64,000 nucleotides of DNA from Patescibacteria group bacterium (GTDB lineage: Bacteria > Patescibacteriota > Patescibacteriia > JAXHNJ01): assembly GCA_041649715.1 (NCBI GenBank), contig JBAZMP010000002.1, positions 132,964 to 196,963 on the forward strand, given 5' to 3'. This document shows, one piece after another, positions 6,574-58,148 of this stretch. The translations under genes were made by a program, and so were the position numbers. Below the pieces are notes generated by a model. It saw only the letters and a list, made by a program, of their open reading frames with translations. It was not told where the DNA came from and did no database searches. Position 1 is the first letter of the stretch; the number at the start of each line of letters is the position of its first letter.

Positions 6574-7836
6574 ATGAACCGTTATTTTTTCATCCTCGGC
6601 CGCAATCAAGCCTTGTCTCTGGCGGAAAGCGCCGCTTTTTTTAGCCGCGAACAGATGGTTTTTAATCCGCTTTATTTAGGCCGGGATTTTTTGGTCTGGG
6701 AGACGGAAAATAAAATTGATTTGAAGGCACTGAATAACCGGTTGGGAGGAGTGATTAAAGCCGGAGAAATATGGGCGGAAAGGCCGAAAAAGCCGGATCT
6801 GCTCGCCGACCTTTCCGAAGCCCTGGGCTTTTCCACTATCAGTAAATTTCTGCCTGTCGGCGCAGAAAAATTATTCTTAGGCTTTAGTCTGTATTTTGAC
6901 GAGGGCAAGAGCTTCATTTATCTGCAAAAAGGCTTGGAAAGGCATTTTTTAAGCCTAAAAAAAGAGATAAAGGAAACCGGCCAAAAATTGCGCTTGGTCA
7001 CTTCGCGCGGCCAGACTCTTTCTTCCGTGGTGGTGAAGAAAAATAAATTATTGACGGCCGGGGCGGAAATCGTCATTTTTGTCACACCCGAAAAAATGTT
7101 TATCGGGAAAACTTCAAGCGTCCAAGATTTTGAGGGTTATAGTTTCCGGGATTTCCAGCGGCCCGGACGGGATATGCGGATCGGTTTGATGCCGCCAAAA
7201 GTTGCCCAAATCATGGTAAATTTAGCGCAGGCCCGGGAAAGTGAGGTCATCTTGGATCCTTTTGCCGGCTGCGGCACGATTTTGCAGGAAGCGATACTCT
7301 TGGGCTATAAAAATTTGGTCGGTTCGGATAATAACCCGCGGGCCTTAAGCCAGACCCGGCAGAATTTAGAATGGTTATGCAGAAATTATAAGATTGACGA
7401 GAAAAAAATCAATGTAAAATTAATGCCGATCGATGTCCGGCAGATATACAAAGACTTAAGCCCCAATTCAGTGGACACAATTGTGACCGAACCATATCTG
7501 GGGCCGGCGCTTGATGATCGACCGGGGGAAGGCAAAATAAGAATGGTGGCGGCTAATCTGAGCCAGCTTTACTTGGATTTTTTCACCGCCATTAAAAGAG
7601 TTTTGAAACCCGGCGGCAAAATAGTCATGATCTGGCCGGTTTTCCGCACTCCGGCCGGCAAGCAGTTTTTGCCGATCTTGGAAAAAGTTCTGGCCAAGGG
7701 TTTTGAAAAAATCAACCTGATTCCCGAAGTTTTTAAGGCCAACGATCTGGAGGAACTAACAAGCCGGGGCTCGATTCTATATTCCCGGGAAGACCAGAAT
7801 GTTTTAAGGGAAATTTTCGTTTTTAAAAATGTTTAG
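6574..7836 (+). CDS. putative RNA (N2-G / N6-A type) SAM-dependent methyltransferase, Trm11/RlmL-like
   Basis: SAM motif I 'ILDPFAGCGTILQEA' and catalytic-type motif 'IVTEPYLG' (NPPY variant). N-terminal THUMP-like region. Confidence 0.7.
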   Translation: MNRYFFILGRNQALSLAESAAFFSREQMVFNPLYLGRDFLVWETENKIDLKALNNRLGGVIKAGEIWAERPKKPDLLADLSEALGFSTISKFLPVGAEKLFLGFSLYFDEGKSFIYLQKGLERHFLSLKKEIKETGQKLRLVTSRGQTLSSVVVKKNKLLTAGAEIVIFVTPEKMFIGKTSSVQDFEGYSFRDFQRPGRDMRIGLMPPKVAQIMVNLAQARESEVILDPFAGCGTILQEAILLGYKNLVGSDNNPRALSQTRQNLEWLCRNYKIDEKKINVKLMPIDVRQIYKDLSPNSVDTIVTEPYLGPALDDRPGEGKIRMVAANLSQLYLDFFTAIKRVLKPGGKIVMIWPVFRTPAGKQFLPILEKVLAKGFEKINLIPEVFKANDLEELTSRGSILYSREDQNVLREIFVFKNV

Positions 7837-8890
7837 AAAAATAAGGCATTTTTGGGTATTTAGCGCCATTTTAGTCGTGGTTGGCGTATTTTTTATTTTT
7901 TATTTTCAGGCGATCGGGGCCCTGAATACGGAGTCAAATTTTAGGGCTGGGGTCGTAAAAATCCCGGAAGAATCCGTTAAGGAAACGTCCGTAATTTTCG
8001 GGGGCGATATCATGCTCGCGCGGACCGTGGAACAAAAGATATTGGCGACCGGGGATTACGCCCTGCCTTTCCGGAAAATATATCAGGAATTTAAAAAAGC
8101 CGATCTGGCCCTTGCTAATTTGGAGTCGCCTTTTTCAGACGGCGGTTCGGCGACCCCGAACGGCAGCACGGTATTCCGGGCCCTGCCCAGAACAATAGAG
8201 AGTTTAAAATTAGCCGGCCTCGATGCGGTTACCTTAGCGAACAACCATTTTGGCGATCAGGGCAATAAAGGCAAACTTTACACCTTTAAGCATTTAACCG
8301 ATAACGGTATTGAATATTGCGGAGCGGGCAATGATTATGACGAAGCGCATACGCCGGTGATTAAAGAGGTTAATGAGATCAAGATCGGTTTTTTGGGCTA
8401 CGGATATCCGGAAACGATGTATGTGGCAACCGGCGATTCGCCGGGGCTCGCCAATATGGATATTGAACAGATGAAAAAAGATATTGAGCGATTAAGCGAT
8501 TCAGCGGACTTTATTGTGGTGACCATGCACGCTGGCGCGGAATACACGCATACACCCGGCAAATCGCAAATCGCATTTTCGCATGCGGCTATAGACGCCG
8601 GCGCCAATTTAGTGATTGGTCATCATCCCCACGTGGTTCAATCAACGGAAAAATATAAAGACGGCTATATTATTTACAGCTTGGGCAATCTGGTTTTTGA
8701 CCAGATGTGGTCAGAGGAAACCCAGCAGGGAGTCGTCGTTAAAGTGATTCTTTCTGATAATAAACTAAAATCAATAGAATTTAAACCCATCCATATTTAC
8801 GATTATAATCAGCCGGATTGGGTCGTCGGCAGCGAAGCGGAAAAGATTTTAGGGGATATGGGATTAAACTCGTTTACCCTGTCATTCTGA
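7829..8890 (+). CDS. CapA-family (PGA_cap) metallophosphatase-like protein
   Basis: Signal/TM anchor, then 'GGDIMLAR', 'ANLESPF', 'TLANNHFGDQG', 'MHAGAEY', 'GHHPHVVQ'. The last codons and stop lie inside a palindromic repeat. Confidence 0.8.
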   Translation: MFRKIRHFWVFSAILVVVGVFFIFYFQAIGALNTESNFRAGVVKIPEESVKETSVIFGGDIMLARTVEQKILATGDYALPFRKIYQEFKKADLALANLESPFSDGGSATPNGSTVFRALPRTIESLKLAGLDAVTLANNHFGDQGNKGKLYTFKHLTDNGIEYCGAGNDYDEAHTPVIKEVNEIKIGFLGYGYPETMYVATGDSPGLANMDIEQMKKDIERLSDSADFIVVTMHAGAEYTHTPGKSQIAFSHAAIDAGANLVIGHHPHVVQSTEKYKDGYIIYSLGNLVFDQMWSEETQQGVVVKVILSDNKLKSIEFKPIHIYDYNQPDWVVGSEAEKILGDMGLNSFTLSF

Positions 8891-8963
8891 GGCCAAAGGC
8901 CGAAGAATCTCGACATTAATAATTTCACATACGTGAGATTCTTTGCTTCGCTCAGAATGACAA
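8879..8963. repeat. palindromic intergenic element, CTGTCAYYCTGAGG...CTCAGAATGACA family
   Basis: 'ctgtcattctgagg..gaagaatctc ... gagattcttt..gctcagaatgacaat'. The arms are inverted repeats. Related to the GTCACCCTGAGG elements at 50.2-52.7 kb. Confidence 0.75.
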
Positions 8964-8967
8964 TAAA

Positions 8968-9016
8968 AAATCCTTCGGCGCCAATAAAAAAGCCCGGGAA
9001 ACTGGATTCTCGGGCG
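8968..9016. repeat. left copy of duplicated ychF-type terminator (direct repeat with 9873-9918)
   Basis: Identical 24-mer 'ttcggcgccaataaaaaagcccgg' at 8974-8997 and 9879-9902. Both copies continue into a GCCCG...CGGG hairpin. Confidence 0.85.
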
Positions 9017-9263
9017 TACTTCATTGAGGAAAGATCCCTTAATTTTTTCTTTTTGTTTTCCGACTGATCAATGTTTCGATCAGTCCCTTGAATAATAGAA
9101 GAAATTGATTAAATGCCATTTCCGCATTACACAGCAGGGAGTTGTTCTTGTCTCCTATGATTACCATTATTCCTTCTTTCTTCTGATTTTTGTTGAAGAA
9201 CAGACTTATTTAATTAATTCACATTTATCAAAATTTTTGTATTGTGTCAATAGCATATAAATA

Positions 9264-9292
9264 ACCCCGGGAAATCCGTTTCCCGGGGTTAG
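9264..9292 (-). terminator. terminator of 9328..9786 gene
   Basis: AACCCCGGG-aaatccgttt-CCCGGGGTT hairpin just downstream of the stop on the minus strand. Confidence 0.6.
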
Positions 9293-9327
9293 CGAAGGTT
9301 AGGGGTGAATGTTATTGAATTCCAGAT

Positions 9328-9786
9328 TCACCGAGTTTTCTTCTTGGGGGGAGGGTAAATTTCTTCTCCTATCTTTTTGAAGATTTGGGATTTCTTCAGC
9401 GATTCGAGTAACGCCTTATGGCTTCTTAGAGAGAGAACGGTTTTTCTTTCCCGGTAGATCGCGAGGGCGAGCAGGCCCGCGTACAATTGCGCAGGGATTT
9501 CACGGTGCTTGTAATCTGAACACTTCGGGTTGAACAGGGCGTAGGGTTTGATGCCAGCGATCGGAATGAATTCGGCGATTATTTTCACCGCCGGCAGGCC
9601 GTGTTCCGAGGCCATGATTCTTTTCGTTTTGACTTCGATCCGGTCAAAGGTTTTTCTGTCTGTCGTCCTTATTTCCATCTCTGTCCCGAATACGTAGTCT
9701 ATCTGTCTCGCCAACACCCTCGCACACAATAAGCGCAGAATATTTTCAAGTTCATTCCGCGATAATTTCTTCTTTCTTTTTGTCAT
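9328..9786 (-). CDS. hypothetical protein (possible PD-(D/E)XK-like motif D..x20..EVK)
   Basis: Preceded by a consensus promoter (TTGACA 9867-9872, N17, TAAGAT 9844-9849, minus strand) and an 'AAGGAGG' RBS. 'IDYVFG...FDRIEVKTK'. No confident family. Confidence 0.6.
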   Translation of the reverse strand: MTKRKKKLSRNELENILRLLCARVLARQIDYVFGTEMEIRTTDRKTFDRIEVKTKRIMASEHGLPAVKIIAEFIPIAGIKPYALFNPKCSDYKHREIPAQLYAGLLALAIYRERKTVLSLRSHKALLESLKKSQIFKKIGEEIYPPPKKKTR

Positions 9787-9843
9787 TTTCCCGGCCTCCT
9801 TGGGGAAAGTTCGTGTCCAGATTCTTTGAATGTGCGCGTAAGT

Positions 9844-9872
9844 ATCTTATTCCACTAATATAAAATTGTCAA
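9844..9872 (-). promoter_or_regulatory. sigma-70-type promoter for 9328..9786
   Basis: Minus strand reads TTGACA-N17-TAAGAT. Confidence 0.55.
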
Positions 9873-9918
9873 GAATCTTTCGGCGCCAATAAAAAAGCCC
9901 GGTAGTGATTTCTCGGGT
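9873..9918 (-). terminator. ychF terminator (right copy of the direct repeat)
   Basis: Minus strand reads ACCCGAGAAATCACTACCGGGCTTTTTTATTGG, 12 nt after the ychF stop. Confidence 0.75.
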
Positions 9919-9930
9919 AATTTTTTTATA

Positions 9931-11037
9931 TTAAGCCTTAAAAAGATAATGCATCACATCGCCGTCCTGGACAACGTAGTCCCGGCCGACAATTTTCATG
10001 AGGCCCTTTTCCCGGGCGGCCAATTCTGAGCCGGCTTCGTATAATTCCTTCCAGTTGAAGACTTCCGCTTTGATAAAGCCTTTCTCAAAATCAGAATGGA
10101 TGATGCCAGCCGTCTCCGGCGCCAAGGCCCCTTTAACAAAGGTCCAGGCTCGTACCTCGTCTTCGCCGCCCGTCAGAAAAGTCTGGAAATCCAGCATTTC
10201 ATAACCGAGTTTGATCAATTTATTCAAACCTGACTCGGCGAGGCCGAGGTTTTTCAGGAATTCTTTCTTTTCCGATTCGGAAGACAGATCAGCGATTTCC
10301 GATTCCAGCTGGCAGGAGATGACTACGACGGCCGAGCCGTTCTTTTCGGCAATCTCGCGCACTTGTTTGACGAAAAGATTGTCTTCCAGAAAATTTTCAT
10401 CCACATTACAACAGTAAATCTGTTTTTTCAAAGTGATTAAAGCCAGATCAGAGACCATTTTTATTTCTTCTTCGGAAAAGCCAAGGCTTCGGGCGGCAAG
10501 GCCTTTTTTCAGGGCTTCTTCCAGTTTTGTAAGCAAGGCAAGCAAGGGCGTGATCTTTTTCAAGGTTTCTTTATCCGCCGCTTTCAGCTGTTTAGAAAGA
10601 TTATCTTTTCTTTTGCTGACGATTTCCAGGTCGGATAAAGCCAGCTCAACTTCAATGGTTTCGATATCATCGACAGGATTAACGTTGCCAGTGACGTGAA
10701 TTATGTCACTGTTATCAAAACACCGGACCACGTGGCAGATGACTTTGGTCTGGCGGATATTTTCCAAAAATTTATTGCCCAAGCCTTCTCCTTTGGAAGC
10801 GCCCTTGACCAAGCCGGCAATATCCAGGAATTCCACAATAGCGGGCACGATTTTTTTAGGATGATAAAAACTGGCCAATTTCTCCAGCCGTTCATCGGGG
10901 ACGGTAACAATGCCCACATTCGGTTCAATAGTGCAAAAGGGATAATTTTGAATATCCACTGACTGTTGGGTCAGGGCTTTAAATAAAGTGGACTTGCCGA
11001 CATTGGGAAGCCCGACAATTCCTATTGAGAAAGACAA
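9931..11037 (-). CDS. ychF: ribosome-binding ATPase YchF
   Basis: G1 '[18 protein letters not shown]', '[20 protein letters not shown]', C-terminal TGS-like '[11 protein letters not shown]'. Confidence 0.95.
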
Positions 11038-11093: not shown

Positions 11094-11600
11094 TCAGATC
11101 TTTATCTCGCAATATGACTGGCTTAGTCTTTTAGCTTTTGAGAGAGAAAGTAATTTTATTATTATTGCGTGTTCAAGTTTCGCCTCTTTTAAAGAAATTT
11201 TCCGGTCAATTGTTTCAAGCTCAATAAATTTTCCCAGGTCTTTTACGATATCCAAGTGTATGCGGGTATTTTTATATAACCATAGATAGCGGACTTTTTT
11301 GATTATGTTTTTGACGCCGAAAGCATCTTTAAAAAGTTTTTTAAGAGATTCAACCTGATTACTTTTTAGATTAATAACCTGTAAATTTGAAATCTTGGGT
11401 TTATCTATGTCCGGCCGCTGATAATATATTAGTTCGAAACAACGATTATTTATTTCTCTGATTTTTAAACGGCCCTTTTGGCAATAATAGTAGGTATCCA
11501 GCTGATTTAACTTTCCCGCATATTTTGCCTTTATTCTTTTAAGTGATATTTTTATTTCGTCAAACTCTCTAAGCTTGAATTTTGACTCGACGTTTTTCAT
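11094..11600 (-). CDS. CYTH-domain protein (class IV adenylate cyclase / triphosphatase-like)
   Basis: N-terminal 'VESKFKL' (ExExK-like) plus alternating beta-strand pattern, ~170 aa. AT-rich gene. Confidence 0.6.
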   Translation of the reverse strand: MKNVESKFKLREFDEIKISLKRIKAKYAGKLNQLDTYYYCQKGRLKIREINNRCFELIYYQRPDIDKPKISNLQVINLKSNQVESLKKLFKDAFGVKNIIKKVRYLWLYKNTRIHLDIVKDLGKFIELETIDRKISLKEAKLEHAIIIKLLSLSKAKRLSQSYCEIKI

Positions 11601-13050: not shown

Positions 13051-13590
13051 TTATTTTTTATTAGTAGAATTATTAACGTTATTTCCCCCCTTCTTTAATA
13101 TAGTAGTAATGGTTGCAACAATAATTAGAAAGACGGACCCCAAAATATACATTAAAAGGAGATAGTTAGGCTTATTCTGATTTGTTACGTCTAAGAGAAA
13201 ATAAGGCGGTTGATACCAATCACTCTCAGAGTCTTTGAATATTCTGCCTTCAATTTTTTGGCCAATACTAATAGGATTTTTGTCGTATTCTTCGGCCGTT
13301 AGTTCTACTTGTTGTATATTTTGGGTAAATTTTTCGTCGCAAGGTGGTCCCTGTCCTTTCCTTTTATCAATATTTGTGATATTTAGATTCACAAGATAAT
13401 AATCTCTGTAGGTAAATAAACCTGCCATGTAATAAGCGTCATCTGGCCCATCAAATTTTTTGAATTCTATGTTTGTTATGGTTGCCGTGATTTTACAAGA
13501 GCTTGTATCTCCAGCCGCGGCCCTAGCTTCTTTTGCTAAAAAAGAGACAAAAAGTATTATTAAAAGGAAGAGTAGTTTATTCGCTTTCAT
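13051..13590 (-). CDS. hypothetical secreted/membrane-anchored protein
   Basis: Signal peptide 'MKANKLLFLLIILFVSFLAKEARA', C-terminal TM 'LLLMYILGSVFLIIVATITTIL'. AT-rich. Confidence 0.6.
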   Translation of the reverse strand: MKANKLLFLLIILFVSFLAKEARAAAGDTSSCKITATITNIEFKKFDGPDDAYYMAGLFTYRDYYLVNLNITNIDKRKGQGPPCDEKFTQNIQQVELTAEEYDKNPISIGQKIEGRIFKDSESDWYQPPYFLLDVTNQNKPNYLLLMYILGSVFLIIVATITTILKKGGNNVNNSTNKK

Positions 13591-13594
13591 TATA

Positions 13595-14836
13595 TTATAT
13601 TAATTCTGGATAAAGCGGATATTTTTCGGTTAAATCGTGAACTATTTTTAGCACTTCTTTTTTAACCGTATCATCGGTTGGATTCTTTAAAACCCTGGCG
13701 ATCAATTTTCCGATAATTACCATATCGTCTTCTTTAAACCCGCGGGTCGTTAAAGCCGGTGTACCTAATCTAATACCAGAAGGATCCAGAGGTTTTCTCG
13801 GATCATCGGGGATCATATTTTTGTTGACCGTAATTTTAACCGAGTCCAGTAGCTCTTGGGTTTGTTTGCCGGCCAGGCCAAAAGGCGTGACGTCGGTTAA
13901 GATTAAGTGATTCTCGGTCGTGCCGAAACAAATTTTAAAACCCTCATTTTTTAAGGTGTCACAAAGAACTTTAGCGTTCTTTTTGACTTGTCTGGCATAT
14001 TCTTTGAATTCCGGCTGCAAAGCTTCTTTAAAAGCCACGGCTTTGGCGGCGATATTGTGCTCGTGCGGCCCGCCCTGAAAACCGGGAAACACGGCTTTAT
14101 CAATGGCGCTGGCATATTTTTCTTTGCACATGATCAGGCCGCCTCTGGGGCCGCGCAAGGTTTTATGAGTGGTGGTCGTTATTACATCGAAAATCGGCAC
14201 GGGATTGTTCATTTCTCCGGCCGCGATCAAGCCGGCGATATGGGCGACATCTGCCATGGTAATGGCGCCTATTTCATCCGCGATTTCCTTGAATTTTTTA
14301 TAATCCAAATCCCGAGAATAGGCGGAGTAGCCGCACAAAATTATTTTTGGCTTATATTCATGCGCTAATTTTCTGACCATTCCGAAATCGATCAAGCCTT
14401 CCGGCGTGGTCTTGTACCTCACGAATTTAAAAAGTTTGGCCATATAAGTCACGGGGTGGCCGTGCGTCAAATGTCCGCCGTGGGAGAGGTCCATGCCCAA
14501 AACCGTGTCGCCGGGCGAAAGTAAGGCGAAATAAACCGCCACGTTGGCCGGCGCTCCGGAGAGCGGCTGGACATTGACGTGCTCCGCGCCAAAAAGTTTT
14601 TTCGCCCGATCAATGGCGATCTGTTCCACCGTATCCACATTTTCCGTGCCGCCGTAATATCTTTTGCCGGGGTAGCCTTCGGAGTATTTATTGGTCAAAA
14701 CGCTGCCCAGAGCCTCCAAGACGGCCAGGGAAACGAAATTTTCCGAAGGGATCATTTCCAGGCCTTCTTGTTGGCGTTTGATTTCGGCCGCGATGGCGCG
14801 GGCAATTTCCTTATCTTGTTTTTCCAGCTGTTTCAT
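13595..14836 (-). CDS. glyA: serine hydroxymethyltransferase
   Basis: 'IPSENF', '[13 protein letters not shown]', PLP-lysine motif '[14 protein letters not shown]'. Confidence 0.97.
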
Positions 14837-14876
14837 AAACGTGATTATTTTAGCACAAAAAGCCAGATTTTACGAG

Positions 14877-14905
14877 TTGACAAGGAATAATATCCATGAT
14901 AAAAA
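14877..14905 (+). promoter_or_regulatory. promoter TTGACA-N14-TGATAAAAA (extended -10)
   Basis: TTGACA 14877-14882, TGn + TAAAAA 14897-14905. The same architecture recurs at 15794 and 16433. Confidence 0.5.
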
Positions 14906-14960
14906 GATGACAAATATCAAAGTCGCTCATTAGCAACGAAACGAAAAAGGAGGGGAAATA

Positions 14961-15347
14961 ATGGCGCAAGAAAAACGCGTCTTGGTTGTTTGTCATGTGG
15001 AAGCCGTGCTTTGGCCGATAGTCAGAAGATACAAAGAAGCGGGCTGGCAGGTGCAAGCGGCGAGTAATTTGCCTTCCGGCATGAGGATTTTTGAGGCCAA
15101 TCCAATCGGGTTCGACCTGGTGATCATGGATGAAGATCATGGCTGCGAGAATGGTTCTTTCCGCGACGTGCTGGCTGGCCTGCGCGAGATCAGGTGTTTG
15201 AATGGCCAGTGCGTGGTTATTGCCATGACGACCATAGCCAGAAGCAAAGTGGAAGTCAGGGATCTGAAAGAATGGGTCAATAAGGTTATAGACAGAAAGT
15301 CTTGGCCCACTCTCGTTGCTCTGTCGGCGCAGTATTTCAAGAAATAA
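14961..15347 (+). CDS. stand-alone receiver-like (CheY-fold) protein lacking the N-terminal acidic pair
   Basis: RBS 'AAAAGGAGGGG' 6 nt upstream. 'RVLVVCH', 'FDLVIMDEDHG', 'VVIAMTT' match the receiver beta1/beta3/beta4 pattern. Confidence 0.6.
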   Translation: MAQEKRVLVVCHVEAVLWPIVRRYKEAGWQVQAASNLPSGMRIFEANPIGFDLVIMDEDHGCENGSFRDVLAGLREIRCLNGQCVVIAMTTIARSKVEVRDLKEWVNKVIDRKSWPTLVALSAQYFKK

Positions 15348-15380
15348 TAATTGTTTACAAGATCCAAGGAGGTGAATCTG

Positions 15381-15752
15381 ATGGGAGAGGAATTCCGGTA
15401 TGAACTGCGGGTGCTTAGTGACACCGACTATAACGGTTTCGCCGAAGTGATGTTCTGGTACTTCGCGAATGGGGTTCAGTCGGCGACACACGCGAGCAGC
15501 CATTCGGTCAGACGCAAGTTTCCGTCGGGGACCCTTGTTCTCTGCCGCTTGAAAGCGGGCAAGGATAAAGATGGTCAACCCGGTTATTTCATGGCCGGTT
15601 TCGCCGAAGTCAAGCAGTCGGAGGCTAATGGCCGGCCGGTGGAATTCGGAGAAACGCTCAGTAATTCGGGTGTCGATGATTGGCAGCCGCCGGACAAGGA
15701 TACGCCGATCTTCGACTGTCGCACCAAAGGGGAGGCCAAGCAAATTCAATAG
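15381..15752 (+). CDS. hypothetical protein
   Basis: ATG at 15381 preceded by 'AAGGAGGTG'. Followed by a clean terminator at 15766. Confidence 0.55.
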   Translation: MGEEFRYELRVLSDTDYNGFAEVMFWYFANGVQSATHASSHSVRRKFPSGTLVLCRLKAGKDKDGQPGYFMAGFAEVKQSEANGRPVEFGETLSNSGVDDWQPPDKDTPIFDCRTKGEAKQIQ

Positions 15753-46359: not shown

Positions 46360-46480
46360 GTGGGCAGAGCGGAGGGTTCGCATATCACCGCAAAGCGGGA
46401 CCCCCCCGCAATGCGGGGTGGGTGGTCTAGTGCGCTTGCTTGTCCCGCAAAGCGGGATGCCGCTCTGCGGCAGAGAGCCG
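46360..46480 (+). other. GC-rich structured segment built from tRNA-Ser 5'-half fragments plus small hairpins
   Basis: 'ggagggttcgcat' (11/13 match to tRNA positions 1-13) and an exact 21-mer 'gtggtctagtgcgcttgcttg' (46422-46442 = 46572-46592). These are separated by hairpins CCGCaaaGCGG, CCCCGCaatGCGGGG and TCCCGCaaaGCGGGA, all closed by GCAGAGCGG/CCGCTCTGC. Confidence 0.6.
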
Positions 46481-46557
46481 GAAAATAAGCATATGTATTC
46501 TGTCTGCATATAAAAGTTATAAAGGCGGTTTGCAATTTAATAAGTAGCGGAAAGAAC

Positions 46558-46644
46558 GGAGAGGTCGCATAGTGGTCTAGTGCGCTTGCTTGGAGAGCAA
46601 GTAGACCTTCACCGGTCTCGCGAGTTCAAATCTCGCCCTCTCCG
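46558..46644 (+). tRNA. tRNA-Ser(GGA), no encoded CCA
   Basis: Acceptor GGAGAGG/CCTCTCC. Anticodon arm CTTGC-ttGGAga-GCAAG. Long variable arm. T arm GCGAG-ttcaaat-CTCGC. Discriminator G. Confidence 0.92.
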
Positions 46645-46761
46645 TTCTTCCCGCTACAATCTTGCCCTCTCCGCCAATTATTTTAAATAAAAAAATCGCA
46701 AAAGTCTTGCATTTTTCTGGCGGGTGTTTGTTAAGATAAATTAAGTCGCAATTTGATTGGT

Positions 46762-47910
46762 ATGAATTTCTATGACCTTAGGAATAAAATAGGCCGCTAT
46801 AAAAAATTTTCCCTTGTTACGACACTAGAAAAAAGCTCTGTAGTAAACGAAGCCTATCCGGGCCAATTTAATCTTAGCTTCACTGAATCAAAATGGCTGG
46901 ATAAATTTGACAATTATATAGATGTAAATGAAGATTTTTTCTTTAGTACCATACAGCCCGTTATTAGATACAACGACTTCAAAAATCAAATCTTAACAAA
47001 TAAGACTGCGCACAAACATCTAGCGTTATTTGATATGGCAGATTTGGTCGGAGCAGGAGTTTTTGTTGATAAGAATTCGGGCAATAACTTTACAATACTT
47101 GAGATTCAAGAATTTATTAAATTATTTTTGGAGCTAAAAATTTCTCTCGACAGAGTATATGTTAGTAGCTTTGCCGGCGCGAAAGTAAATGAGGCTACAA
47201 GAGGGAAATATAAATTTGAAAAATTTATACCACCATTTGAATTCGGAAGAAATCAGTGGGTGAAAAACGGGATACCTTCAAAAAATATTATTCCCGATAA
47301 GTCTCGTGACACATTTCTAGCTCTTAATCTTTATGGAAGACCAACGCCCTGGGGTTATCGCAACGAAATTTATATTAAATCTTCCGCCGGCGAATTAATT
47401 GATATCGCTACGTTAGAACATTTAATTTGGTGCCCCGTTTTTAAAGACGGCGAGATTATTGATTTAGTTGACTATGAACATTTCGTAGGTTTGAATGTTA
47501 TTGGAGTCGAAAGGTTATGCATGATCATTAATGATTTCACTAATATTTCTCAATGTGAACATATTTATCCTCTAATCTTAGCGATTAAAAAAGTTTCATT
47601 AAATTACAATTACCATTCGGCTTTTACCGTTGTCGAGAGTGTGCGGGCGGTACATAGGATTATTGCGGATATCGACAAACCAAGCAATCTGTCAAAAACG
47701 CGTCATACAAAATTTAATGATTATTTAGAGGCTTTATACATTCATTTGAATATGCTTAAAATATCAGATAAGATGGGTGTGTTAGAGAAAATATTTGAAT
47801 TAAATGCGAAAATCAATCCGCATTATCCGGAATTACAAAGTGCGGCTAACAATGCTAAAAAAACAGTAGAAGCATATTTTGAGGTAAGATTTAAAAATAG
47901 GGATTGTTAA
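46762..47910 (+). CDS. free-standing AlaRS catalytic-core-like (class IIc) paralog, divergent
   Basis: Colinear remote matches to E. coli AlaRS, recalled from memory. 'STIQPVIRYNDF...KTAHKHLALFDMADLVG' vs 'TSQRCVR...TARHHTFFEMLGNFS'. 'IGVERLCMIINDFTNISQCEHIYPLI' vs '[27 protein letters not shown]'. 'VVESVRAVHRIIADIDKPSN' vs '[22 protein letters not shown]'. AT-rich. Confidence 0.55.
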   Translation: MNFYDLRNKIGRYKKFSLVTTLEKSSVVNEAYPGQFNLSFTESKWLDKFDNYIDVNEDFFFSTIQPVIRYNDFKNQILTNKTAHKHLALFDMADLVGAGVFVDKNSGNNFTILEIQEFIKLFLELKISLDRVYVSSFAGAKVNEATRGKYKFEKFIPPFEFGRNQWVKNGIPSKNIIPDKSRDTFLALNLYGRPTPWGYRNEIYIKSSAGELIDIATLEHLIWCPVFKDGEIIDLVDYEHFVGLNVIGVERLCMIINDFTNISQCEHIYPLILAIKKVSLNYNYHSAFTVVESVRAVHRIIADIDKPSNLSKTRHTKFNDYLEALYIHLNMLKISDKMGVLEKIFELNAKINPHYPELQSAANNAKKTVEAYFEVRFKNRDC

Positions 47911-47942: not shown

Positions 47943-49106
47943 ATGAGACAAGAATTTGAAACAGATTTAAGAGATTTCGGCCAGGTGGCCAAAGAAGAGT
48001 TAAATACGGAAGAAAAACTTTCAGGGGGCAACTTCGAGAGTTTGTCTGCCGTTTCACGCCAGGATGAAGCGGCCAAAAGGCAGCATACCTCCCGCGAAAC
48101 GCAGCGTGAGATTTATGATATCCAAAAAGAAAAGCAAAAGATAATGCAGGCCTTAAAGGAACAACTGGCATGTCTGGACAACCCTGAGGGCAGACTGGAG
48201 CGGGAAAGAGGCGAACGGACGGTTTCTTTTGACGAAGCAGAGGGTGTTTTCGTTTATCAAGATGACCGGGGCCGCCGGCAAAAAGCGACTTTCGGGGAAA
48301 TCATGACCGACATGGATTGGAATGTTCTTTACCACCTGGATAAAGATTCAGCGCCGCGGCCCATGGTAAAGAAATACCTGGTGGAAAGAGCCAAGGCAAA
48401 ATTGTCGGCTCTGCTGGATCTGCAGATCATCAAAAGCGAGTCCGGAAGCAGTGTGGTCCACGAAAAAAAACAACAGGCTTACCGCCGCATTGAAATGGAC
48501 AGACAAAGCGGGGCGGTCAAGGAAAGCTGGGGCTTGGTTTCCGAGTTGATCGTCAAGGACTTTTTAAAAAAATTGAGCCTGGACAAGGATTTCCCTTTCA
48601 AGATCAAGGAAGCGGATGTTTTTCAGGACGTGGAGGAAAAAATCGATTTCATCATCCACCTAGAGAAGAAAAAACGGGGCGTTAACGTGGAGACCGACGA
48701 AAAAGCCAAGGATATCGGCATCCAGTTCACCGTTTCCCCGGAGGTGGCGCCGCACAAGGAGCAACAGCTGCAAAAAGCCAGGCAGGATGTCAAAAAGCAA
48801 GGAGAACGCATTGACGATATCGTCTTGGTCGTCTTTCCCCTGAAAATGGCCAGCGCCTTGCAGCGGCAATGGCGGCACGAGGGCCGCCCGGCCGGCGGGC
48901 CGGATAAATTTTTGTACCGGCAGGAGGCAGAAAAGCTCTTCAAGGAATTGCTGCAGGGCGTGCTTAAACCCGAGGAAATTGCCCAATATTGGGCGACTGT
49001 CCAGAACAATTGGGAAGAAGACCCGCAAATTATCGAGGAAAGAAAAACGCAGCGGGCCAGACACCAAATGAGTCAGCAAGCCTTAAAAAATAAAAATCAG
49101 CAGTGA
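47943..49106 (+). CDS. hypothetical charged protein (possible D..EEK nuclease-like motif)
   Basis: Long uninterrupted ORF. 'EADVFQDVEEKIDFIIHL...GIQFTVS'. No confident family. Confidence 0.55.
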   Translation: MRQEFETDLRDFGQVAKEELNTEEKLSGGNFESLSAVSRQDEAAKRQHTSRETQREIYDIQKEKQKIMQALKEQLACLDNPEGRLERERGERTVSFDEAEGVFVYQDDRGRRQKATFGEIMTDMDWNVLYHLDKDSAPRPMVKKYLVERAKAKLSALLDLQIIKSESGSSVVHEKKQQAYRRIEMDRQSGAVKESWGLVSELIVKDFLKKLSLDKDFPFKIKEADVFQDVEEKIDFIIHLEKKKRGVNVETDEKAKDIGIQFTVSPEVAPHKEQQLQKARQDVKKQGERIDDIVLVVFPLKMASALQRQWRHEGRPAGGPDKFLYRQEAEKLFKELLQGVLKPEEIAQYWATVQNNWEEDPQIIEERKTQRARHQMSQQALKNKNQQ

Positions 49107-50354: not shown

Positions 50355-50819
50355 ATGCGCGACCCGAAGCTTGAAACATCAGGAAAAATAATCGGCTTTT
50401 ATGAAAGGGAGTTTTATTGTTTTTCCAATTTTTCAAGTTTTAAAGTGGAGTGGCAGGGTAAAATCTGGATGACCTCGGAACATGCCTATCAGGCGGCCAG
50501 ATTCTTGAAAACCGCGCCGGCCATCGCGGAAGAGATTTATAAGGCCAGGTCCGCCCACGAAGCGAAAAAGATCATGGAAAGAAACCGGGCCAAAGAGGAG
50601 CCGAACTGGGAGACCAAGAAGGTTGGCGTGATGGAAGAAATATGCTCTAATAAACTCAAGCAGAACCCTTATATCCAAAAGAAGCTGCGGGAAACCGGAA
50701 CAAAAGATATTGTGGAGGATTCGCCGGTGGATGGTTTCTGGGGCTGGGGTCCTGATCGCAAAGGCAGAAATGAACTTGGGAAGATTTGGATGAGATTAAG
50801 AGAGAAACTGTCACCCTGA
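50355..50819 (+). CDS. NADAR (YbiA/DUF1768) family protein
   Basis: 'FYEREFYCFSNFS...WMTSEHAYQAARF', 'DGFWGWG'. The last four codons and the stop lie in the repeat core. Confidence 0.8.
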   Translation: MRDPKLETSGKIIGFYEREFYCFSNFSSFKVEWQGKIWMTSEHAYQAARFLKTAPAIAEEIYKARSAHEAKKIMERNRAKEEPNWETKKVGVMEEICSNKLKQNPYIQKKLRETGTKDIVEDSPVDGFWGWGPDRKGRNELGKIWMRLREKLSP

Positions 50820-53110: not shown

Positions 53111-53875
53111 ATGGAAACTCAGCCTATTTATAAATATATTTGGTTTGGAACTTGTCTTCGTTTTCTTCAAGACGTAACTTCAAATACAAAAATTCATGGA
53201 GATGGACTAGTTCTAGCTAATATTAATGGATTTTTAGAATATTTAGATATATTAGGATTGATAGTTACAAAAAGAGCTTCAGCTAAATTAGTTCAGTTTA
53301 AAAAAGAAATAGAAAACTTGCCAACCCATTCCAATTTAACTGTTGATCAAGCAGTTAAGTTAAGAGGTTTAATGGATAGTATACGTAATACGCTAAGTGC
53401 AGAGGCGGAAGGAGTTTTGATTTTTGTAGTAACATCTAAAAGATTAGATGTGAATAAGTTGCTCAATGAAGTTTCTAATCTTTTTGCTCCGGATGTTTTT
53501 AAAAATTTACCAGATGTTGCTCGCTTTGATTTTAATGAAGCAGGTAAATGTATAGCTTTTTATAGGCCCACTGCCGCCGCTTTTCATTTATTAAGAGGCA
53601 CAGAGGCAATGTTGAGGGAGTTTTATTGTAGATTGATTAAACAAAAGCGTCTCAAAGAACTTTTGTGGGGTCCAGTAGTGGATAACCTAAGGTTGCGTCA
53701 GAAAACAAAAAAATATGATACATTGTATAATAATTTAGATAATATACGTCTTTCATTCAGAAATCCGACACAGCATCCAGAAAAAGTTTATGATATTGAT
53801 GAAGCACAAGATCTTTGGTCATTATGCATTGATGTTGTAAATAGAATGTCTAAAATATTAATGGAAAATTCATAA
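53111..53875 (+). CDS. DUF4145/HEPN-like protein (Rx4H motif), AT-rich
   Basis: 'FNEAGKCIAFYRPTAAAFHLLRGTEAMLREFY' followed by 'IRLSFRNPTQHPE' (R-N-x3-H). The stop TAA directly abuts the dnaG ATG. Confidence 0.5.
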   Translation: METQPIYKYIWFGTCLRFLQDVTSNTKIHGDGLVLANINGFLEYLDILGLIVTKRASAKLVQFKKEIENLPTHSNLTVDQAVKLRGLMDSIRNTLSAEAEGVLIFVVTSKRLDVNKLLNEVSNLFAPDVFKNLPDVARFDFNEAGKCIAFYRPTAAAFHLLRGTEAMLREFYCRLIKQKRLKELLWGPVVDNLRLRQKTKKYDTLYNNLDNIRLSFRNPTQHPEKVYDIDEAQDLWSLCIDVVNRMSKILMENS

Positions 53876-56927: not shown

Positions 56928-56999
56928 TCCGCGATAGCTCAATGGTAGAGCAACCGGCTGTTAACCGGTAGGTTGTCGGTCCGAATCCGACTCGCGGAG
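56928..56999 (+). tRNA. tRNA-Asn(GTT)-like gene with non-canonical T-loop (TCCGAAT)
   Basis: TCCGCGA ta GCTC aatggta GAGC a ACCGG ctGTTaa CCGGT aggtt GTCGG tccgaat CCGAC TCGCGGA g. Position 55 is C instead of the near-universal U. Flanked by TACCCAAAGC / GCTTTGGGTA. Confidence 0.7.
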
Positions 57000-57020
57000 C
57001 TTTGGGTATTTTATTTATTT

Positions 57021-57867: not shown

Positions 57868-58148
57868 GGGCGCCGCGCTCAGGGGTAGTTGAGCTGGTAC
57901 CCCGCATAACTCACTGTGTTCGTATGCGGGGCAGGCAACGCCGGTAATATATTTTAATGATTATTCCAGCTCTCCTGTAGTTTAATTGGTAAAACGCTGC
58001 ACTGTTAATGCAGAGATTGGAGGTTCGAGTCCTCCTGGGAGAGCTGGGATAATCATTGTAGCACTGCTTGTCCCGTAGGAACAGAAAGCGACTTACGGGA
58101 TTAATGCGGAGACCGCTGGTTCGAATCCAGCCCCCTGAGCGCGGCGCC
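57868..58148 (+). pseudogene. degenerate tRNA(Asn-like) gene interrupted by hairpins and by a complete nested tRNA-Asn cassette
   Basis: 18-bp closing helix GGGCGCCGCGCTCAGGGG / CCCCTGAGCGCGGCGCC. 5' block 'tcaggggtagttgagctggta'. 3' blocks 'gcactg' + 'ttaatgcggagacc GCTGG ttcgaat CCAGC cccctga g'. Hairpins at 57900-57931 and 58071-58100. Confidence 0.55.
57971..58043 (+). tRNA. tRNA-Asn(GTT), canonical
   Basis: TCTCCTG ta GTTT aattggta AAAC g CTGCA ctGTTaa TGCAG agatt GGAGG ttcgagt CCTCC TGGGAGA g. Closely resembles E. coli tRNA-Asn. Flanked by GATTATTCCAGC / GCTGGGATAATC. Confidence 0.93.

Follow-up and report, generated by a model that had tools for sequence, protein, structure and literature searches.

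The stretch of DNA analysed here (the window) comprises 64,000 nucleotides from a Patescibacteria group bacterium (GenBank assembly GCA_041649715.1, contig JBAZMP010000002.1, positions 132,964 to 196,963), and the gene in question lies at 46762-47910 of it. Judging from profile alignments and a structural model, its product is a very divergent, free-standing derivative of the aminoacylation region of alanyl-tRNA synthetase (AlaRS), as a preliminary description of the locus had proposed. The gene and its immediate surroundings are as follows.

46762-47910, plus strand: AlaRS-like gene, 382 amino acids plus stop, ATG start
46753, plus strand: alternative TTG start of the same gene, from the list of open reading frames (ORFs)
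46557-46645, plus strand: tRNA-Ser(GGA), found by ARAGORN (Rfam tRNA, 56.9 bits), 116 nt upstream of the AlaRS-like gene
47943-49106, plus strand: gene for a 387-residue protein downstream of the AlaRS-like gene, GC 0.497

The preliminary description had placed an ORF of 383 residues in an AT-rich patch, directly after a tRNA-Ser gene and before a 387-residue ORF. Both neighbours and the ORF itself are confirmed, while the length has to be corrected to 382 residues because the stop codon had been counted. The ATG at 46762 is the same start as in an 81%-identical ortholog (78% in DNA) from the genome L009. The patch is AT-rich indeed: with a GC content of 0.336 (0.305 at third codon positions) against a window mean of 0.452 (standard deviation 0.039), the ORF is the lowest-GC 1.15-kb stretch of the window.

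Homology to AlaRS, retained catalytic residues and the rebuilt alanine pocket

As a single sequence, the AlaRS-like protein finds no match in Pfam (including PF01411, tRNA-synt_2c, at E<=1), NCBIfam or the PDB sequences, thus the comparison with HMMER that the preliminary description had suggested gave nothing. A collection of 5.8 billion proteins contains 101 homologs at E<=1e-3, about 360-410 residues long, which come from Patescibacteria and DPANN archaea and a few of which carry PF01411. When a 73-sequence family alignment (A1) was used as a profile, the only PDB sequences retrieved were AlaRS catalytic fragments (E 5e-5). Using hhalign, A1 scored 93.4% against residues 1-461 of E. coli AlaRS alone, and 99.8% (E 8.5e-28) against an AlaRS profile made of the E. 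coli enzyme, 30 DPANN AlaRSs and the protein P0236, with query residues 1-382 corresponding to E. coli 3-372. Only 16 of the 73 family members match PF01411 at E<=0.01 (best score 39.3 bits, cut-off 30.3), and no other Pfam family recurs among them. Moreover, the AlphaFold (AF2) model of the protein is confident (pLDDT 97.2, pTM 0.94), and its top Foldseek matches in the PDB are AlaRS catalytic fragments from human, E. coli, A. aeolicus and Methylomonas (TM 0.68-0.76, E 1e-15 to 1e-17, 15-19% identity), followed by ThrRS, GlyRS-alpha and SepRS at E about 1e-5 and TM<0.43. Profile and structure evidence thus establish the homology to the aminoacylation region of AlaRS, whereas the single-sequence hidden Markov model (HMM) search does not; the similarity to class IIc synthetases is significant, and the colinearity with the N-terminal part of AlaRS claimed earlier holds. 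Compared with the L009 ortholog, the gene has dN 0.109, dS 1.85 and dN/dS 0.059, so it is under strong purifying selection and functional. Together with the 101 homologs, this shows that the gene is neither a chance ORF nor a pseudogene.

The alignments divide the protein into the following parts.

Residues 1-256, 46762-47529, plus strand: class II (IIc) catalytic domain, matched with residues about 3-250 of E. coli AlaRS, beta-rich, ending with the motif 3 helix
Residues 33-45, 46858-46896, plus strand: 'PGxFNLSFxE' segment, equivalent to AlaRS 'PTLLFTNAGM', gap-free in hhalign
Residues 62-97, 46945-47052, plus strand: motif 2 region, aligned to E. coli 'QRCVR...RHHTFFEM'
Residues 212-221, 47395-47424, plus strand: pocket strand 'LIDIATLEHL', equivalent to E. 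coli 'YIEIWNIVFM', with HMMER and hhalign in agreement
Residues 243-256, 47488-47529, plus strand: motif 3, 'GLNVIGVERLCMII', from alignments and column counts
Residues 257-382, 47530-47907, plus strand: all-helical domain, aligned to E. coli 251-372

The motif 2 region contains Q65, R69, D72, K85, H86, F90, D91 and M92, and motif 3 retains G248, E250 and R251. Conservation was counted in 191 full-length relatives, and by these alignments the class II residues for ATP binding and adenylate formation are near-invariant across the family: R69 of motif 2 is conserved in 189/191, F90 in 187/191, E202 (E. coli E183) in 188/191, D/E214 (E. coli E209) in 190/191, and G248, E250 and R251 of motif 3 in 190/191, 188/191 and 191/191, respectively. 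K/R85, Y/H86, E/D91 and M92 are also kept.

The alanine pocket presents a different picture. In E. coli AlaRS it is formed by M43, R69, W170, N212, D235 and G237 (PMC12467997), of which D235 holds the substrate's alpha-amino group (PMC7373986, PMC12143591); in the Methylomonas enzyme, Val204 lies against the substrate methyl group (PMC12143591) and matches V214 of E. coli, the +10 offset between Asp225 and Asp235 applying here too. In this numbering the pocket residues (R69, D235 and so on) are one below their index counted from Met1, while N303 and D400, mentioned below, are Met1-based. With the exception of R69, all these residues are replaced in the AlaRS-like protein.

M43 to E42: E in 162/191 relatives
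W170 to F185/L186: F or L in the family, the register being ambiguous by one residue between alignments
N212 to T217: T in 179/191
V214 to E219: E in 158/191
D235 to L244: I, L, V, A or G in the family, essentially never acidic
G237 to V246: G, A or V in the family

The preliminary description had read the E. coli segment 'DTGMGLER' as 'LNVIGVER' here, with substitution of the Asp that binds the alpha-amino group, and three independent alignments bear this out. Conservation is also high within A1: F36, N37, S39 and E42 of the 'PGxFNLSFxE' segment are each present in 73/73 sequences, as are D214 (in place of E209) and T217 on the pocket strand, where E219 is found in 70/73. In distant subfamilies, the pocket positions vary again (e.g. 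H42/S217/N219) while the ATP residues stay fixed, which is the pattern expected of active enzymes with diversified substrates.

The all-helical domain has five helices (H269-377 in the model), with conserved R295, H298 and D303 and a basic patch at 312-319, and by alignment it corresponds to the 'tRNA latch', the helical half of the tRNA-recognition domain of AlaRS. The protein stops near E. coli residue 372, ahead of the 'YDTYGFP' subdomain that carries the G3-reading Asp. The position of E. coli N303 is occupied by S311 in hhalign (G or S in the family; an Asn lies two residues upstream in this protein only), so that no equivalents of the residues reading the G3:U70 pair, N303 and D400, are kept. 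Neither an editing domain (PF07973) nor C-Ala is found in the 382 residues, and there is no separate editing-domain gene in the window. Thus, of the three parts said earlier to be missing, the editing domain and C-Ala are indeed gone, whereas the recognition domain is lost only in its 'YDTYGFP' subdomain and keeps its helical half. Set beside the AlaRS aminoacylation fragment (E. coli 1-441, A. aeolicus AlaRS453, human; PF01411), the protein shares the fold, the colinear order of catalytic and helical domains and the positions of the ATP residues of motifs 2 and 3; besides the low identity and the replaced pocket, it differs in a motif 2 loop shorter by 4 residues and a longer hairpin between the pocket strand and motif 3.

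Distribution, apparent transfer and neighbourhood of the family

An HMM search that exhaustively covered 1.84 billion representative proteins assigned 458 clusters to the family at E<=1e-3 and 229 at 1e-10, nearly all of 350-400 residues, and the profile did not reach canonical AlaRS at E<=1e-3. By comparison, a single DPANN AlaRS query found at least 8000 AlaRS clusters of about 580 residues with PF01411 and PF07973, which is the 'small-AlaRS' type of the candidate phyla radiation (CPR), DPANN and Asgard lineages (bioRxiv 10.1101/2023.05.29.542759). A scan of GTDB with one stringent pattern gave 29 family loci, most of them in Woese-, Pace- and Nanoarchaeota and some in Saccharibacteria, Buchananbacteria and Berkelbacteria. 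The family is therefore small, rare and patchily distributed across DPANN archaea and Patescibacteria, whose cells are ultra-small. In a rough neighbour-joining tree, a mostly bacterial clade stands against a mostly archaeal one, with some interleaving. A viral or defence-related origin was considered and rejected, as the family has no relatives in IMG/VR and no PHROG or PADLOC match; the AlaRS of giant viruses (TM 0.72) is structurally no closer than cellular AlaRS.

The Pacearchaeota contig L022 carries a family member (7650-8786) and, 5 kb apart, a genuine AlaRS of 597 residues with a canonical pocket (13830-15623). The ordinary AlaRSs of Pace-, Woese- and Nanoarchaeota (this one and P0246-P0365) have about 580 residues, are 38-44% identical to E. 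coli AlaRS, and contain catalytic, recognition and editing parts without C-Ala, in agreement with the 'small-AlaRS' preprint. Two further relatives may be mentioned here. On the Nanoarchaeota contig L031, two AlaRS-like copies (377 and 397 residues) overlap in tandem at 8535-9668 and 9665-10858. The free-standing P0236 (460 residues) scores 152 bits with PF01411; where AlaRS has D235 and N212 it carries Y and T, respectively, and in evolution it may stand between canonical AlaRS and the AlaRS-like family.

Several observations suggest that the gene of the window looks horizontally acquired, namely its low GC content, its excess of identity to the L009 copy and an apparent empty site in relatives. 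While the two AlaRS-like proteins are 81% identical, other proteins of the two genomes are much less similar to each other (GroEL 58%, GroES 46%, RNase J 41%, solute-binding protein 36%). The homology between the two loci extends from 2 nt ahead of the ATG to 11 nt past the stop codon; both loci have a tRNA-Ser(GGA) directly upstream and a GC content below that of the surroundings, and their flanks are otherwise unrelated. Furthermore, in the genomes L038 and L040 the tRNA-Ser is followed by a gene of the 387-residue family with no AlaRS-like gene between them; this junction looks like an 'empty site', and the AlaRS-like gene therefore appears to have been inserted here. No att-type repeats flank the ORF, the only repeats being duplications of tRNA pieces upstream. 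Several family copies elsewhere lie among genes for recombinases, integrases, an OLD-type nuclease or toxin-antitoxin systems.

A tRNA gene is found immediately upstream of the family gene in four Patescibacteria loci (the window, L009, L011 and L012), whereas the closest other relatives (L041-L043) lie in unrelated contexts without an adjacent tRNA. The tRNA-Ser was considered as a functional link or substrate and rejected for this reason and because its acceptor stem carries A3:U70, not G3:U70; it is therefore read as a landmark of insertion. The surroundings of this tRNA show some further peculiarities. A degenerate copy of its 5' half lies at 46362-46480, with a 21-nt stretch (46422-46442) identical to 46572-46592, and is interrupted by three hairpin repeats CCGCAA[A/T]GCGGG at 46388, 46406 and 46445. 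The last 16 nt of the tRNA recur 29 nt downstream (46658-46673, 94% identical; region 46629-46676); the second copy is followed by CCA and the intact gene by TTC, and the repeated 3' end may be a scar of past recombination. Leader and trailer of the tRNA-Ser are complementary and extend the acceptor stem (46544-46567 and 46634-46657, 24-nt arms, 92%). Similar complementarity flanks both tRNA-Asn(GTT) genes of the window (56928-57000 and 57971-58044, both on one strand at a distance of about 1 kb) and the second tRNA-Ser of L038, which may reflect a lineage-specific stem for pre-tRNA processing.

The downstream 387-residue protein belongs to a family of 54 relatives restricted to Patescibacteria, whose genes adjoin a tRNA-Ser gene in three genomes (window 47943-49106; L038 8001-9080; L040 617-1717). 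It was examined as a possible functional partner and rejected, because it does not occur beside other members of the AlaRS-like family; it is also unrelated to the 372-residue gene upstream of the L041 copy. The AF2 model of the 387-residue protein is confident (pLDDT 90.4) and has no significant match among PDB folds, the best, non-significant ones (E 0.06) being tRNA-splicing endonuclease subunits and PD-(D/E)xK nucleases. Further downstream, a 154-residue ORF (50355-50819) has matches to phrog_1017 (E 3e-36) and to PDC-M42C, a candidate defence model of PADLOC (E 6e-7). Three other ORFs of the window also have a low GC content (53111-53875, 0.316; 11094-11600, 0.318; 13051-13590, 0.337) and may be foreign genes as well.

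A regulator recurs beside the family gene in archaea. Among the 108 nearest neighbours at about 30 loci, TrmB is the sole Pfam family found repeatedly (9/108), and 11 DPANN loci have a TrmB-like gene of about 247 residues in divergent orientation, 49-1230 bp upstream. Residues 114-254 of the TrmB-like protein, its C-terminal, non-DNA-binding part, align with C-terminal extensions of 150 residues in four family members (L036, which is from Berkelbacteria, P0109, P0120 and P0148) at 29-37% identity and E 1e-20 to 1e-24. From this combination of neighbourhood and fusion we argue for a functional link, which could be a shared ligand or the formation of a complex. Neither a TrmB-like gene nor a fusion occurs at the window locus or in most of the Patescibacteria copies, and the small ORFs between the TrmB-like and AlaRS-like genes in DPANN loci are not homologous to each other.

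Possible functions of the AlaRS-like protein

The AlaRS-like enzyme probably does something other than charging tRNA with alanine. Our favoured reading, to which we give an even chance, is that it is an accessory, horizontally acquired, adenylate-forming paralog of AlaRS with a non-canonical substrate. The core would bind ATP and form an acyl-adenylate. The substrate would not be L-alanine, or would be held differently, given the hydrophobic residue in place of D235, and the two new, nearly invariant glutamates E42 and E219 would line the pocket. This pair recalls the acidic glycine pockets of GlyRS, and our guess from this analogy is glycine or a cationic substrate. The acyl group would then be transferred, most likely to the 3' terminus of an acceptor helix in a tRNA or another RNA, since the helical domain that would contact such a helix through its basic patch is retained. 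The enzyme would act outside housekeeping translation, and the module that the gene forms in DPANN archaea with the divergently transcribed TrmB-like regulator implies a regulated or ligand-coupled use. The combination of invariant catalytic residues and a variable pocket favours a real enzyme over a pseudo-enzyme. Some points weigh against this proposal. The activity, the ligand and the acceptor are all predicted; the residue mapping comes from sequence-profile alignments, with the W170 ambiguity noted above; E42 and E219 might simply re-create the binding of the alpha-amino group, with alanine or glycine as the substrate; no conserved partner hints at a pathway except the TrmB-like regulator, which is absent here; the search for alaS in this genome covered 64 kb of a 262-kb contig; and the viral TuAlaRS, a mini-AlaRS without the canonical Asn/Asp, still charges tRNA-Ala (PMC10036535).

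As a rather unlikely alternative, the protein could be a ligand-sensing or regulatory one, whose core would have ATP, an amino acid or uncharged RNA as its ligand and would either pass a signal to a TrmB-like factor or work together with it, by analogy with the HisZ-type paralogs of aminoacyl-tRNA synthetases (aaRSs) or with E. coli AlaRS, which represses its own gene; the RefSeq name of E. coli AlaS is 'alanine--tRNA ligase/DNA-binding transcriptional repressor'. The recurrent divergent regulator, and the fusion of its C-terminal domain (for effector binding or oligomerisation) to the core in four members, speak for this. However, the catalytic Arg, Glu and Gly, with the motif 3 Arg present in every relative counted, are conserved beyond the usual need of mere binding, the window locus and most Patescibacteria copies are without the regulator, and a divergent pair of regulator and enzyme is equally normal for a regulated enzyme.

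A more specific form of the favoured proposal seems unlikely to us, namely that the protein has a so far unrecognised synthetase-like activity: it would activate a non-alanine substrate in the pocket with the two glutamates and load it onto an acceptor helix of tRNA or other RNA, at the 3' end, without reading G3:U70. Candidate substrates would be glycine, an amino acid that is cationic or non-proteinogenic, or some hydroxy acid. We also hold it improbable that the protein works as AcmF does in ascamycin biosynthesis, as an aminoacyl-tRNA-dependent transferase, which would use a charged tRNA as donor and a small molecule or a protein as acceptor. AcmF is likewise a free-standing AlaRS-like protein of the same truncated architecture, with aminoacylation and tRNA-recognition parts only; its equivalents of N212 and D235 are substituted and it works outside translation (PMC12945691), as is proposed for the AlaRS-like family, and the basic helical domain and the tRNA genes adjoining four Patescibacteria loci would agree with such a function. 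But AcmF has lost most of its residues for ATP binding and activation and belongs to a Streptomyces biosynthetic cluster (PMC12945691), whereas the AlaRS-like family of DPANN archaea and Patescibacteria is near-invariant at these residues, no biosynthetic gene cluster surrounds any of its copies, and the closest relatives have no tRNA beside them.

That the organism uses the protein as its working AlaRS, be it a cellular 'mini-AlaRS' or the alpha half of an enzyme split like that of Nanoarchaeum equitans, is very improbable: active mini (461 residues) and split forms do exist (PMC10036535, PMC11392972), the ATP site is intact and a canonical alaS was looked for in the window only, but Asp235, described as essential for holding the alanine amino group (PMC7373986), is replaced family-wide together with N212, V214, M43 and W170, DPANN AlaRS is at least 80-fold more common than the family, a genuine AlaRS coexists with it in L022, its transfer seems recent, and neither the window nor the surroundings of about 35 copies contain a beta-like partner. 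A split enzyme would have overturned the preliminary description. Three things contradict it: the pocket is rebuilt, the family is rare, and the second gene in L022 is a complete AlaRS. In the window, no further sequence related to AlaRS turned up in tblastn with E. coli AlaRS, a DPANN small-AlaRS and P0236 as queries, and among the other loci L022 was the only one with such a sequence. Other reduced forms of AlaRS are known. The Tupanvirus TuAlaRS (461 residues; PMC10036535) and small-AlaRS, which is found in the same organisms as the AlaRS-like family, retain motifs 1-3 as well as the pocket for alanine, and they charge tRNA-Ala; the recognition domain is complete in TuAlaRS, and small-AlaRS has the editing domain (PF07973). 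Members of the AlaRS-like family are some 80 residues shorter than TuAlaRS, and their pocket differs. The alpha subunit of the split AlaRS of N. equitans (NEQ547) is also a separate catalytic polypeptide in a DPANN lineage and on its own charges acceptor helices independently of G3:U70, but it is half of an essential enzyme with a beta partner (PMC11392972).

Returning to the proposed accessory enzyme, the family may be compared with other aaRS derivatives. Truncated aaRS cores in non-translational acyl transfer or regulation include GluQRS/YadB, PoxA/GenX, HisZ, AsnA and the SerRS-like amino acid:carrier-protein ligases, all of which derive from synthetases other than AlaRS. A review of aaRS paralogs contains no genuine AlaRS-core paralog of such a kind (PMC9437257), so that, AcmF and the viral and small forms aside, no AlaRS catalytic-core paralogs are catalogued, and AlaRS has been described as one prototype architecture throughout biology (PMC10036535). 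In the full-text literature searched, the viral mini-AlaRS, the split AlaRS of N. equitans, small-AlaRS and AcmF are described, and the AlaRS-like family was not found. An intact ATP site joined to a systematically re-engineered pocket makes the family a candidate for new acyl-activation chemistry, and it bears on ideas about the diversification of the catalytic core shared by AlaRS and bacterial GlyRS. Its hosts, DPANN and CPR, are the least-understood prokaryotes; the family appears to move across domains and, in archaea, is tied to a TrmB-like regulator. If the more specific form of the favoured reading is true, DPANN and Patescibacteria symbionts would gain a horizontally exchangeable, regulator-controlled route to non-canonical aminoacyl-RNA.

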